From NCBI GenBank assembly GCA_965232515.1, contig CBDDPY010000002.1, positions 7,072,001-7,136,000 of the forward strand: a stretch of 64,000 nucleotides of DNA, given 5' to 3'. Shown here piece after piece: positions 33,141-47,661 of this stretch. Both the position numbers and the translations under genes were made by a program. The notes beneath the pieces are model-generated. The model made no database searches. It saw nothing but the letters and a program-made list of their open reading frames with translations, and was not told where the DNA came from. The stretch's first letter is position 1. The number at the start of each line of letters is the position of its first letter. This DNA is from Alphaproteobacteria bacterium (GTDB lineage Bacteria; Pseudomonadota; Alphaproteobacteria; GCA-2731375).

Positions 33141-34532
33141 ATGATCGGCATGGGCGCGCTCGAACCCGGATCGGCGCCGCGGAATCTGCTGTACTTTCAG
33201 CTGAGCGACAGCGCGATCGACACGGATGTACTTGGTTCGGCGGCGGATTCCCCATCGCTCGCGTCCGCCGGCTGGCAGGTGCACGCCACCGCGGACCGGC
33301 AGGGCGCGCGACGCTTGCTGGACGAACACGCCTTTGACGTCGGGCTGGCCTATCTGAACAACGACCCCGTCGATCGTATCCGCGCCGACATGGTGGCGCT
33401 TTGGCGCGCTGACGAAAACCTGCCCTGGATCGCCCTGCTGCCGCCCGAAGGCCGGCATGACGCCGAGGTCTGCCGGGTGCTCTGGGAGTCGTTCTACGAC
33501 TTCCACACCCTGCCGCCGGATATCGAGCGGTTGCTGACCACGCTGGGCCACGCCCATGGCATGGCGATGATCGCGCGCACCGCGTCGGAGGCGACGCCGG
33601 CGGAAACGACGGAACCGCAAATGGTCGGCGTCAGCCCGCCCATGCAGGCCGTGTTCCGCAACATCCGCAAGCTCGCCGGCGTCGACGCGCCTGTTCTAAT
33701 CACCGGCGAGAGCGGCACCGGCAAGGAGCTCGCGGCCAAGGCCATTCACGAACGCTCGCGCCGCGCGGCCGGGCCGTTCATCGCCGTAAACTGCGCGGCG
33801 CTGCCGGAAAACCTGATCCAATCCGAACTGTTCGGTCACGAGAAGGGGGCGTTCACGGGCGCGCACCGCCGAAAGACCGGCAGCATCGAGGCGGCGAGCG
33901 GCGGCACGCTGTTCCTCGACGAGATCGGCGACCTCACGCCCGAGCTTCAGGTCAACCTCCTGCGTTTTCTGCAGGAAGGAATGATCCAGCGGGTTGGCAG
34001 CCCGCAGGAGGTGCCGGTCGACGTCCGCGTGCTGGCGGCGACGCATACGGATATGGAGCGCGCGGTCGCCGAGAGCCGCTTCCGCGAGGACCTCTATTTC
34101 CGCCTCAATGTACTCCGGCTGGAGATGCCGCCGCTACGCGACCGCGGCGACGATATCGGCGTGCTGGCGCAGTATTGCTTCGACATGTTCCGGCACGAAA
34201 CCAGCAACCGGGTCCGGGGCTTGAGCCCCGGCGCCCTGCAGAGCATGGCCGAATACGATTGGCCCGGAAACGTGCGGGAACTGATCAATCGCGTGCGCCG
34301 CGCCACGGTGATGTGCGACGGGCGGCTGATCAAGCCGGCGGATCTCGGTCTGCACGCCCGCTCCCAGCCGGTGCGGATCGTCACCATCGAGGAGGCCGTG
34401 CGCCAGGCCGAGAAAGACGCCATTGAACGGGCGCTGGGCCGGACCAAGAACCTGTCGCAGGCGGCGCGCAGCCTGGGCACGTCGCGGCCGCGGCTCTACC
34501 GCTTGATGGCCAAGCACGGCATCCAGCCTTGA
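33141..34532 (+). CDS. sigma54-dependent enhancer-binding protein (pseudo-receiver, AAA+, Fis-type HTH)
   Basis: [46 protein letters not shown]-terminal [20 protein letters not shown]. Confidence 0.95.
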
Positions 34533-34557
34533 ATGGCGGTGGATCTGCAGCGCGTTG

Positions 34558-34574
34558 TGTCCGCTGGCGTTACA
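34558..34574 (-). promoter_or_regulatory. 17-bp enhancer-like motif copy 1 (reverse orientation)
   Basis: TGTCCGCTGGCGTTACA is the reverse complement of TGTAACGCCAGCGGACA. Confidence 0.8.
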
Positions 34575-34716
34575 GTTTGGCGCGCGAATCCGCTGGCGGT
34601 GCGCTCTCCGGTCGGCGACGGGTACGACCGCCCGAGGCGTAATGGCGACGGACGTGAGCAGAGCGTTGCATGTTCGGCCGGGGTACGGGATCGGCGCCGC
34701 ATGGCGGTTGATCGCG

Positions 34717-34732
34717 TGGCATGCTTTTTGCT
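34717..34732 (+). promoter_or_regulatory. sigma54 promoter
   Basis: TGGCATGCTTTTTGCT. Confidence 0.85.
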
Positions 34733-34918
34733 GACGTGAGGTTAGCGACCTCTCCGTTTGCGGTCGCCGAGGGAGGTATGGGACAGACGCGTGGGACGAA
34801 CGTGGTTTGGGGCGAGACGGGTTCGCGTGCTCTGATGTCGACGCGTTAATAATTTGGTTAGATTCTGGTGTGCAGAAGAAATTGAGCCGAGGTCAAAAAC
34901 AAATCGAAACGTGGTGAA

Positions 34919-45417: not shown

Positions 45418-45423
45418 TGGCGC

Positions 45424-45439
45424 TGGCACGGAGTTTGCG
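45424..45439 (+). promoter_or_regulatory. sigma54 promoter
   Basis: TGGCACGGAGTTTGCG. Confidence 0.75.
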
Positions 45440-45560
45440 TGCCGTAAGGCAGGACAGGTGGCGGCCGAGGCGCTGAATGGGCGCATGCGCGCAAGCAATC
45501 CCGGCGCCACCGGCAGATGTACGATATCGGGGGGATATCGGGTCGAGAAGGGAGGCTGAT

Positions 45561-46169
45561 ATGGGTCCAGCACGAATGTTTGCGCGGCAGGCGATGGTGC
45601 TGTTCGTCGGGGTCATCGCCGGCTGGTCGACATTGACCCAGGCGGCGGACGACAGCGGTCAGTTCGCCATCAAAGGTGTCGGATTGCTCACCTGTCAGGA
45701 CAGCGTCGCCGCGCGCGAGGCAAAGTCCGGCCTGGATATCCGCTTCCGCAGCTGGATCGATGGCTATCTGACCGCGGTCAATCGCTACGAGCCGACGACC
45801 TACGATGCGACGCCGTGGGGAACGCCCGAGATCATCGCCACCATCGTCGACAATCATTGCCGCGACAATCCGGACGAGCGTTTCGTCATTGCCGTACAGA
45901 AGCTGGTCGCCACATTGCAGGCGGACAAGCTGACGACGAGCTCGCCGTTGCTGACGGTGGCCGTGGACGGCAAGCGGGTGCTGCTCTACGAAGCCCTGCT
46001 GCAGCGCGTTCAGGAGCGGCTGGCCGAGCGGGGGCTTTATCTGGGCAATGCCGACGGTGAATTCGGCCCGATGACGCAGCAGGCCATCGCCCTCTATCAG
46101 ATCAGCGAGGGTCTGGAAGGCACCGGACTGCCCGATCCGCTGACGGTTTGGAAGCTGGTGAAGCCCTAA
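45561..46169 (+). CDS. Secreted protein: two-cysteine HdeA-like domain plus C-terminal peptidoglycan-binding domain
   Basis: GGAGG RBS before ATG 45561; C-terminal VQERLAERGLYLGNADGEFGPMTQQAIALYQ...GL..TG matches the PG_binding_1 pattern. Confidence 0.8.
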   Translation: MGPARMFARQAMVLFVGVIAGWSTLTQAADDSGQFAIKGVGLLTCQDSVAAREAKSGLDIRFRSWIDGYLTAVNRYEPTTYDATPWGTPEIIATIVDNHCRDNPDERFVIAVQKLVATLQADKLTTSSPLLTVAVDGKRVLLYEALLQRVQERLAERGLYLGNADGEFGPMTQQAIALYQISEGLEGTGLPDPLTVWKLVKP

Positions 46170-46356
46170 CAGGATCGTTGGCCGGCGCCATCTCGTCCGA
46201 TGCGGGTCGTCCCCGATACCGTTGTCGTCCGGGAGGCGGTTGGCGATCATCGGCGGCGGCACTTAAACGCATGCTTGGACAAATTGATTAGCAATTGCTA
46301 TAGGAGTGACGCGACTGACTTGCAGATCAAGCGAAGAAGTCTGAGGAAGAGGGCGC

Positions 46357-47661
46357 TTGAACAAACGATCATTTGCGTTTGTCTGCACCATTGCTTTCGC
46401 CGTCCCAGCGACCAGTATTGCTCAGGACGCGCAGCGAGAGCAGGCGCTGCAAGAGCAGGTCGAACGTTTAACCCGCGTTATTCAGGTTCAACAACGGGCG
46501 CTGCTTCAGCTTGAGCAGCGGCTGCGGGCGCTCGAGCAACGGCAGCCCGCGCCTGAGACGCCGCCGCCAGCCGCGCCGCCGCAGCCGCAAGCGCAGCCCC
46601 CGGCGCCGGAGCAGCCGCCTGCCGCACCGGCGCAACCGCCGCAACCCGAACTCGCCGATCGGGCCGCCGAGGAGGGTGAGGAGGAGCCCGTTAAACGCGA
46701 GGCCGAACCCTCGCGGGCGCTGGAGACGGTCGCCGGCGAGGCGCAGGGCTTTTTCGGCGAGCGCTATACTTTCGAGCCCAGCATCACCTATTCGCGCTTC
46801 GACCGCTCCGAAATCGGGTTGAGCGGGTTCCTGGCGCTGGACGCGATCTTTCTCGGCACGATCAGCGTCGACGAGGTCGAATCGGATATCGTGACCACGG
46901 ACGCGACCTTCCGCGTCGGCATCACCAACGATCTGCAGGTCGACGTCAACGTACCGTTCGTCTATCGCCAGTCGAACTTCGTCAGCGGCGGTGTCGGCGG
47001 CTCGGCATCGGGCCGGGCCGAGAGGGAGGTCGACGCCAGCAATCTGGGCGATATCGGTTTCGGCGTGAATTATCGGCTGTTCCGCGAAACCGAGGTCTGG
47101 CCCGACATCGTCGTCAATGCCCGCGGGCGGGCGCCGACAGGGCGGGACCCGTTCGGGATCGAGCTTCGCACCGTCGAAGGCACCCAGGGCAATCTGCAGG
47201 TGCCGGAACAACTTCCCACGGGCAATGGTGTCTGGCAGGCGTCGGCCGGCCTGTCGTTTCTGAAGACCATCGACCCGGCCATCCTGTTCGCCAGCATCAA
47301 CTACTTTCACAATTTCCAGAAAGGCTTCGACGATATCGATGCCGCCGACGGCGACCAGCCGGGCGACGTGGATCTCGGCGATTCCATTCAAGCCGGCGTC
47401 GGCATGGCCTTCGCCTTGAACGAGCGGCTCAGCCTGAGCCTGAGCTATACGCACCGCATCGTCGAGGAGAGCCGGACCAAATCGGACCTGGCCGACCGCT
47501 TCACCGAGGTCGTCGGCAGCGATGCCAACGTCGGCATTTTGAACACCGGCATTACCTACGCGATCACCGACAACCTGACCTTCGTCTCGAATGTGGGCGC
47601 CGGCCTGACCGAGGATGCGGCCGACGTCGAGATCCGGGTGTCGTTCCCCTACACCTTCTAG
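46357..47661 (+). CDS. fapF: FapF-like outer membrane beta-barrel amyloid secretion channel
   Basis: Signal peptide, N-terminal coiled coil (QREQALQEQVERL...LEQRLRALEQ), Pro-rich linker, GFLALDAIFLG, APTGRDPFGI, LPTGNGVW, terminal Phe. Confidence 0.88.
   Translation: MNKRSFAFVCTIAFAVPATSIAQDAQREQALQEQVERLTRVIQVQQRALLQLEQRLRALEQRQPAPETPPPAAPPQPQAQPPAPEQPPAAPAQPPQPELADRAAEEGEEEPVKREAEPSRALETVAGEAQGFFGERYTFEPSITYSRFDRSEIGLSGFLALDAIFLGTISVDEVESDIVTTDATFRVGITNDLQVDVNVPFVYRQSNFVSGGVGGSASGRAEREVDASNLGDIGFGVNYRLFRETEVWPDIVVNARGRAPTGRDPFGIELRTVEGTQGNLQVPEQLPTGNGVWQASAGLSFLKTIDPAILFASINYFHNFQKGFDDIDAADGDQPGDVDLGDSIQAGVGMAFALNERLSLSLSYTHRIVEESRTKSDLADRFTEVVGSDANVGILNTGITYAITDNLTFVSNVGAGLTEDAADVEIRVSFPYTF

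Follow-up and report, generated by a model that had tools for sequence, protein, structure and literature searches.

Why would a bacterium carry six genes for the major subunit of one functional amyloid? The question is raised by positions 33141 to 47661 of a 64,000-nucleotide stretch of alphaproteobacterial DNA (the window; assembly GCA_965232515.1, contig CBDDPY010000002.1, positions 7,072,001 to 7,136,000), where homologues of the Fap amyloid genes include six of the fapC type. Published work portrays Fap as an amyloid system that is 'fixed' in evolution, its synteny nearly invariant (PMC12822426). It was found only in Beta-, Gamma- and Deltaproteobacteria and as one operon (PMC3792158), and of 1172 published clusters 94.5% have exactly two fapBC genes (PMC12392863). 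The literature searched, which does not cover subscription journals, describes neither multi-fapC arrays nor Fap in alphaproteobacteria. This work identifies the locus, by homology, as a Fap functional-amyloid system that is not a canonical operon, its fapC genes lying in a row of predicted cassettes. The explanation that we favour, and consider fairly probable, is that dosage was raised by amplifying the whole enhancer-promoter-fapC-terminator cassette, that a single BrfA-type activator controls the copies, and that FapC1 is a minor subunit with a specialised role.

A Fap system in an alphaproteobacterium

The preliminary description of this DNA had recognised a GAFTGA protein, six three-repeat proteins, a FapB-like protein, a C39 peptidase and a coiled-coil barrel on one strand, and had proposed an amplified Fap pathway in a probable alphaproteobacterium, yielding mixed-subunit fibre, sheath or matrix in quantity. 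All genes of 33141..47661 were confirmed on the + strand at the positions then reported, and matches in NCBIfam, Pfam and PDB bear these identities out. The NCBIfam FapC model matches all six open reading frames (34919, 37820, 38991, 40154, 41292 and 42403; E 1.6e-16 to 6.5e-23), while FapD corresponds to 43575 (NF058616, E 4e-79) and FapF to 46357 (E 2e-126). The proposed comparison with profile models of FapA to FapF matched all six Fap types, adding the previously unnamed FapA (36387) and FapE (44509). The 43575 protein also matches PF03412 (E 9e-21), with catalytic Cys and His motifs and a hydrophobic N-terminus read from its sequence; FapF matches PDB entry 5O65 over residues 112-434 (E 6e-90), preceded by an N-terminus that reads as heptad-like. 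A profile of 32 close FapC-like proteins found, as its sole PDB matches, the two solved FapC sequences (E 5e-28). Homologues of fapA, fapB, fapD, fapE and fapF all lie beside the FapC-like genes, as in the published rule for a Fap cluster, a FapB/C-repeat gene with at least three other fap homologues within 5 kb (PMC12392863). Instead of the canonical single operon with one fapB and one fapC, an arrangement typical of the family though not demanded by that rule, there are six fapC genes, nine sigma54 sites and five internal terminators. The protein-coding features are:

32033..32425, +: small secreted two-Cys helical protein, probably part of the Fap locus (hhalign to 45561 family; 68% orthologue)
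33141..34532, +: Fap-linked sigma54 enhancer-binding protein, putatively BrfA-type, with VpsR-type N-domain, AAA+ domain with GAFTGA and Fis helix-turn-helix (Pfam)
34919..35752, +: FapC1, divergent FapC class
36000..36383, +: conserved accessory secreted protein with L..I.G[KR]G and LWDE motifs, candidate FapD substrate
36387..36908, +: FapA-like chaperone (NF058617, E 4e-6)
36927..37526, +: FapB-like minor subunit, three repeats (NF058557, E 1.4e-30)
37820..38659, +: FapC2
38991..39830, +: FapC3
40154..41008, +: FapC4, predicted FapC fold
41292..42134, +: FapC5
42403..43260, +: FapC6
43575..44300, +: FapD-like C39 peptidase, N-terminus resembling a signal peptide, motifs QKTDFSCG and KHFVV preserved
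44509..45417, +: FapE-like protein, perhaps in truth starting at 44599 (NF058559, E 1e-24)
45561..46169, +: secreted two-Cys helical domain (weakly HdeA-like) plus PG_binding_1, candidate wall-anchored chaperone
46357..47661, +: FapF-like beta-barrel of the outer membrane, preceded by an N-terminal coiled coil and a Pro-rich linker

GcrA and ChpT families scoring above cut-off identify the host as an alphaproteobacterium, which, with the Fap homologues and the six fapC genes, supports the pathway first proposed. The closest named homologues are from Kiloniellales/Pelagibius; the host's order comprises 33 genomes, and is distinct from the 127-genome order of Pelagibius. RpoN is encoded by the host genome. 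The fapC copies are only about 83% identical in nucleotides over their first 300 nt, with a longest identical tract of 98 nt, and hence did not arise as a collapse or echo in the assembly. Of 30 bins of the stretch, 30, 25 and 27 are covered by the contigs of three other studies, mostly at 90-99% identity.

All 18 repeats of the six FapC-like proteins fit GN[IVL][GA][VLI]N[VLIA]xxGxxxxQxN. The published FapC motif consists of three imperfect repeats of GN-psi-G-psi-N..G..NqQ.N, and both of its stricter features, Gly at position 4 and Asn two before Gln, are kept in 10 of the 18. Structure prediction, one of the checks suggested in the preliminary description, was run on FapC4: the AlphaFold model is of low confidence (mean predicted local distance difference test score 52.9, residues 1-99 mostly below 50) and aligns to FapC 9U4U with Z 13.5 and 2.6 Å root-mean-square deviation over 150 residues, the next match having Z 3.6. 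The best Foldseek match of the model is likewise 9U4U (E 2.4e-3), and the three-layer cross-beta fold of FapC is predicted to fit FapC4.

In common with Pseudomonas fapABCDEF (FapC 9U4U/9NQD; FapF 5O65), the locus has homologues of the six gene types, ordered A-B-C-D-E-F, as well as three imperfect Asn/Gln repeats, a C39 peptidase, the FapF barrel and, as predicted here, the FapC fold. Unlike the Pseudomonas system, it has six fapC-type genes, one of them upstream of fapA, and in place of a fapA-E operon it would have at least eight separately promoted units; it also has three accessory genes. Its subunits also differ from Pseudomonas FapC in being strongly acidic (28-35 Asp plus Glu, against 3-7 Lys plus Arg), in having no Cys, and in a first repeat that departs from the motif.

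Separately promoted fapC cassettes

The preliminary description had overlooked the architecture of the locus, which its predicted signals define as a row of separately promoted cassettes with a common enhancer-like box, and not one operon. Strict matches to the sigma54 -24/-12 promoter number 11 in the window, where shuffled sequences lead one to expect 0.81; nine of them are on the + strand of the locus, where the genome-wide expectation is 0.33 per 14.5 kb. Each of the six fapC genes has one, as do the accessory-fapA-fapB unit, fapD and 45561-fapF. The box TGTAACG-N4-CGGACA precedes eight of the nine promoters, its reversed copies lying at -156 to -164 and its forward copies at -81 to -83, and all seven exact matches in the 7.39-Mb genome fall within the locus, the eighth site having one mismatch. 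The five longest stem-plus-T hairpins are those 3' of fapC2-6; after fapC1 no terminator was called, and terminator-like sites in total show no excess (16, against 14.0 in shuffles). On this stretch no sigma70 promoters, no Rfam match and no intact tRNA were found. The predicted signals are:

33016..33030, +: weaker sigma54-like site (one mismatch) before the activator, no enhancer box upstream
34558..34574, -: enhancer-like box 1 (TGTAACG-N4-CGGACA), 159 bp before promoter
34717..34731, +: sigma54 -24/-12 promoter of fapC1
35791..35807, -: enhancer-like box 2 (one mismatch)
35947..35961, +: sigma54 promoter of accessory-fapA-fapB unit
37542..37558, -: enhancer-like box 3
37706..37720, +: sigma54 promoter of fapC2
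38688..38719, +: intrinsic terminator 3' of fapC2
38783..38799, +: enhancer-like box 4, 83 bp before promoter
38866..38880, +: sigma54 promoter of fapC3
39850..39891, +: intrinsic terminator 3' of fapC3
39964..39980, +: enhancer-like box 5
40047..40061, +: sigma54 promoter of fapC4
41028..41067, +: intrinsic terminator 3' of fapC4
41085..41101, +: enhancer-like box 6
41168..41182, +: sigma54 promoter of fapC5
42155..42192, +: intrinsic terminator 3' of fapC5
42199..42215, +: enhancer-like box 7
42280..42294, +: sigma54 promoter of fapC6
43281..43321, +: intrinsic terminator 3' of fapC6
43383..43399, +: enhancer-like box 8
43464..43478, +: sigma54 promoter of fapD(E)
45424..45438, +: sigma54 site before 45561-fapF, no enhancer box upstream

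It is very unlikely that these promoters are separate because the copies are expressed differentially or in alternation, generating condition- or stage-specific fibres rather than a summed output. The same box stands before all six fapC genes, and the locus yielded neither a second regulator nor an invertible segment or RNA family. Such a scheme would nevertheless be served by every fapC copy being monocistronic, as predicted from the sigma54 sites and terminators, by a box that lies at about -160 in reverse before fapC1 and fapC2 and at about -82 forward before fapC3-6, and by upstream regions that are little alike outside the box and promoter.

A matrix built from nine sites in the loci of three other organisms (L104, L024 and L026) gives the eight window sites the top eight places on the 7.3-Mb contig, with just 2 others of 170 sigma54-like sites exceeding 11 bits, and those barely, although its training sites were chosen with the window's own pattern and the test is therefore only partly independent. 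Across 21 distant Fap promoters chosen by position, the half-sites TGT[AT][AT]C / G[AT][AT]ACA occurred 47 times, against 5.7 in shuffles (1000 shuffles, maximum 14), often near -162 and -82/-70; this pattern was picked after viewing the full-matrix result, and so is not fully independent either. The recurrence is confined to half-sites, as the full 17-bp matrix gave no significant score in most distant Fap promoters. Since half-sites recur in these promoters, the box is probably a variant of a family-wide enhancer. The promoter regions of loci L107-L181 contain a near-palindromic TGT[AT][AT]C-N6-G[AT][AT]ACA at positions close to -162 and -82 relative to the sigma54 site, a candidate BrfA-type operator. 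A link of the box to the VpsR site, considered from a consensus sequence, was not established.

A putative BrfA-type activator

The locus having its own sigma54 activator was earlier treated as a distinguishing feature. The activator is present, and the 33141 protein retains both GAFTGA and FLDEIG (Walker B DE), but it does not set the locus apart: the RpoN promoter of fapA in Pseudomonas fluorescens PF07 and its requirement for the adjacent enhancer-binding protein BrfA are published (PMC9207406), and an activator homologue scoring above 250 bits occurs in 60 of 80 sampled Fap loci. The 33141 protein was the best genome match for all eight fap-adjacent activators tried, and a VpsR domain is present in four of five fap-linked activators. 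It is these activators beside other fap loci that point to 33141 as a putative BrfA-type Fap activator.

As in PF07, the sigma54 enhancer-binding protein is adjacent and a -24/-12 promoter precedes the fap genes (PMC9207406; PMC13101488). There, one promoter stands before fapA, and brfA is reversed downstream of fapF, whereas here the activator is upstream and co-oriented, with eight box-plus-promoter units. BrfA senses cyclic di-GMP (c-di-GMP; PMC13101488). The N-terminal VpsR domain (PF20161) is shared with Vibrio cholerae VpsR, which is described as lacking GAFTGA and the Walker B DE and working with sigma70 (PMC6158489), whereas 33141 keeps both motifs and its predicted promoters are of the sigma54 type.

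Two classes of FapC

In their mature parts, FapC2-6 are 78-92% identical to one another (85-92% among FapC3-6), while FapC1 is 47-48% identical to them and 62% identical to its own orthologue in a related contig. The phylogeny of the FapC-like proteins rests on quick trees, in which FapC1 clusters with its orthologues (Shimodaira-Hasegawa-like approximate likelihood-ratio support 97-98), and FapC2-6 show no one-to-one pairing with the copies of the related organism. As FapC1 groups with orthologues elsewhere, it represents an old second class, and FapC2-6 look like a younger or reshuffled expansion. FapC1 is separately conserved, and is probably a minor, specialised subunit.

The tandem copies fapC2-6 are under purifying selection, with synonymous divergence (dS) of 0.39-0.66 and a nonsynonymous to synonymous ratio (dN/dS) of 0.11-0.26. 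Variable columns among FapC3-6 amount to 9 of 81 in the repeat core, 6 of 59 in the N-terminal part and 36 of 109 in the remainder (linker). Nearest neighbours among fapC2-6 change along the gene, and a search for gene conversion found no significant tract in any of ten pairs (lowest P 0.08).

The concentration of variation in linkers around conserved repeat cores, and the lack of detected homogenising conversion, are what functional diversification would leave behind. The paralogues would then form a heteropolymer or several fibre types, with linkers tuning surface chemistry or mechanics as in multi-flagellin filaments, and FapC1, perhaps also FapC2, fixed in distinct roles; the separate clade of FapC1, nearer its orthologue than its neighbours, and the recurrence of one FapC1 with five FapC2-6-type subunits on a listed 75,208-bp contig (see below) also agree with it. 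We consider this unlikely, if far from fanciful, given the close identity of FapC3-6 and their want of one-to-one partners in the quick trees, the one enhancer box common to all six fapC genes, and a Pelagibius locus with a single copy of the FapC2-6 class and no FapC1-like match in its assembly. The comparison with filaments such as those of the six Caulobacter flagellins (PMC10369909, PMC7591256) is one of analogy only: several paralogous subunits build one extracellular polymer, from unrelated proteins and by an unrelated export route.

Relatives and occurrence

The Pelagibius locus (L104) has the gene order accessory-A-B-C-D-E-PG-binding-F, and resembles the window in this order, in the box and in an internal sigma54 promoter before fapC. 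It differs in having one fapC only, which has its own sigma54 site and two boxes and encodes a protein 62-69% identical to FapC2-6; the activator is not on the L104 contig. Duplication of such a single-fapC unit, with its boxes and sigma54 site, would produce the array seen here. Metagenome contig L024 (89% protein identity in its best segment) reads terminator, boxes, sigma54 site, fapC, terminator, boxes, while L026 runs from the end of a fapC through a box and a sigma54 site to a 36000 orthologue. In L185, from a genome in the Pelagibius order, an activator is followed by two boxes, a one-mismatch sigma54 site and a FapC1 orthologue. The same length of longest contig, 75,208 bp, is listed for five FapC2-6-type proteins, for a FapC1 orthologue (63%) and for an orthologue of 32033 (68%), a shared listing which suggests that the 1+5 fapC set also exists in another organism. 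A metagenome-assembled genome called Kiloniellales by its source has at least six FapC-type entries of related kind, three of them partial.

A gene-neighbourhood survey counting subunit paralogues, as earlier suggested, covered the best 80 of at least 364 confirmed genome loci, many from Stenotrophomonas and some cut by contig ends. A single fapC was found in 74, and the six multi-copy loci (two copies in one, three in four, four in one) are from Lysobacter-like gammaproteobacteria. Lysobacteraceae-type loci (L121, L135, L145, L149, L150, L159) are like the window in their 2-4 tandem three-repeat fapC genes, intact copies being 76-94% identical, and in a linked activator in most; they are unlike it in that the copies, spaced by about 60-70 bp, follow a single upstream sigma54 site and have no such site between them, and in proteins that end in CxxC. 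These multi-fapC operons are an independent expansion, of which no description was found in the literature searched. Loci L093 and L096 also belong to Lysobacter-like genomes with 2-4 tandem fapC genes, and the first copy in L159 appears frameshifted. Amplification inside one gene is seen in P0072, P0073, P0075, P0133 and P0186, FapC-like proteins 750-1430 aa long, in each of which 6-9 stretches were matched. A record titled Nocardiopsis (L131) has a Stenotrophomonas-like Fap locus layout, and is probably contamination.

Occurrence of this FapC subfamily is patchy. FapC4 was unmatched in 60 other genomes, many of them incomplete, meaning 'not found' and not 'absent'; subfamily members were found in 0 of the 32 other genomes of the host's order, many likewise incomplete and with one distant match to the profile, and in 2 of 127 genomes of the Pelagibius order. 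Across 400 genomes of the class, again many incomplete, the profile gave distant Fap matches only, in two. Such a distribution fits horizontal spread or wide loss, and patchiness would also be expected of a non-adaptive amplification, whether a transient duplication or an assembly artefact. However, that explanation is already largely refuted and scarcely credible: all six genes keep an intact reading frame, promoter and box at a dS of 0.4-0.9, the tandem copies have the low dN/dS given above, the stretch is present in related strains sampled by three other studies, and multi-copy sets exist in other organisms.

The same genome has a second, distant Fap-like locus (L020, G000:C2:6176000-6183000), with three repeat proteins, a C39 peptidase, a FapE-like protein, an ABC substrate-binding-like protein and FapF on the opposite strand; a locus of this type is also present in the same-genus genome G001 (L021). 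A third FapF-like barrel gene (32% identity) is at G000:C2:2786267-2787217 (-).

Accessory genes

The preliminary description had added 36000, 45561 and possibly 32033 as extra accessory genes. Their membership of the locus is supported by orthologues in other Fap loci or the related contig, but the first two are not unique to it. Homologues of 36000 precede fapA in Methylotenera, in an Acidithiobacillus-type locus and in Pelagibius, and in Pelagibius and sphingomonad loci, too, 45561 is flanked by fapE and fapF. The 45561 family has two invariant Cys, and its likeness to HdeA is weak (PF06411 matching 2 of the 12 members, at E 0.02 or worse; Foldseek HdeA E 0.55, TM-score 0.59 by target). The 32033 protein is homologous to the 45561 N-domain (hhalign to 45561 family 92%, E 6e-7). 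In the Atlas, the 45561 N-domain had no match, and 36000 matched unnamed clusters only.

The pattern D..L..[IM].G[KR], designed post hoc, is common to 36000 (11 of 11) and the N-terminus of FapE (97 of 100), against a background of 13%. In its mature form FapE is missing the first ~70 residues, and it is the suspected FapD substrate (PMC5557850). Therefore 36000, with its FapE-like motif, is a candidate second FapD substrate.

The neighbourhood of the locus

Upstream, 4479-29138 (-) encodes an RTX-type repeat protein of 8219 aa, flanked by a TolC-like gene (Pfam OEP) and by ABC/HlyD-like genes (flanks 1412-4455 (-) and 29521-30864 (-)), a putative giant type I-secreted adhesin beside the Fap locus. 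The fragment at 31600-31898, which from its motif reads like the C-terminus of a tyrosine integrase, is followed by a tRNA-Met 3' end, and looks like the right border of stacked islands. Further copies are at C2:7033148 and C2:7070682, the intact tRNA is at C2:6884762, and related strains have little or no coverage at 31134-31767. Directly after fapF, 47725-48411 (-) encodes an XRE-type helix-turn-helix fused to one of FixJ/LuxR type, and the equivalent position of the Pelagibius locus is occupied by a FixJ-like regulator and kinase. Genes named by eye at 48847-57790 comprise a bacterioferritin-like gene, a cluster for iron uptake of the imelysin/di-haem type and TonB/ExbB-like genes.

Discussion

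Dosage amplification of the cassette, as the favoured explanation of the array, has several observations to contend with besides the partial circularity of the box searches and the low confidence of the FapC4 model. Firstly, every NCBIfam Fap score is under the (equivalog) cut-off of its model, and the conserved Asn is absent from repeat 1 in five of the six FapC-like proteins. Secondly, the fapC copies have diverged without a significant gene-conversion tract, whereas pure dosage arrays are often more homogeneous. Thirdly, codon bias towards that of highly expressed genes is modest, with FapC2-6 at percentiles 67-96 and FapC1 at 48, and is equally high in four accessory genes or fapE. Fourthly, no evidence of expression emerged from the data examined: a run of raw reads placed 0 reads on the stretch, and three RNA-labelled contig sets have even intergenic coverage and contigs of 40-175 kb. 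Covering intergenic DNA evenly, in long contigs, these sets look like DNA, and hence demonstrate related strains with the locus rather than transcription.

Under dosage amplification, tandem duplication of enhancer box, sigma54 promoter, fapC and terminator would have raised the output of major subunit, which may be the reason that the copies were retained by selection. The 33141 protein, probably switched on by c-di-GMP as published for BrfA, would bind TGTAACG-N4-CGGACA, and the bound boxes, about 82 or 160 bp upstream, would fire eight sigma54 promoters together. The predicted output is six monocistronic fapC messages, an accessory-fapA-fapB unit and a fapD-fapE unit, alongside an enhancer-less sigma54 unit of 45561-fapF. 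Sec would take the subunits across the inner membrane, where FapA, perhaps with the two helical accessory proteins, would hold them unfolded until FapD activity and the FapF pore exported them to stack into three-layer cross-beta FapC fibres. FapC2-6 would be near-interchangeable in this assembly, mainly supplying extra dosage, with FapC1 probably a minor and specialised component; the mixed-subunit fibre of the preliminary description would be plausible. More tentatively still, the product might be a composite Fap amyloid of two conserved major-subunit classes (FapC1 and FapC2-6), its composition set by the six enhancer-promoter cassettes, with dedicated HdeA-like periplasmic chaperones, one wall-anchored, and 36000 as a second FapD-processed export factor.

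The biology of the individual parts is already known, making the surprise a moderate one unless mixed or specialised fibres are demonstrated. Nevertheless, the rule of a 'fixed' Fap system is broken in a specific and testable way, by six subunit genes each with its own enhancer-like box and sigma54 promoter. The locus also provides eight copies of a candidate operator for BrfA/VpsR-like activators, half-sites of which occur at conserved distances in distant Fap promoters, and a natural series of FapC variants, from 47% to 92% identical, for asking which differences permit co-assembly. Were the composite fibre real, Fap would have an amyloid counterpart to multi-flagellin filaments, and a natural test bed for the rules of cross-seeding.

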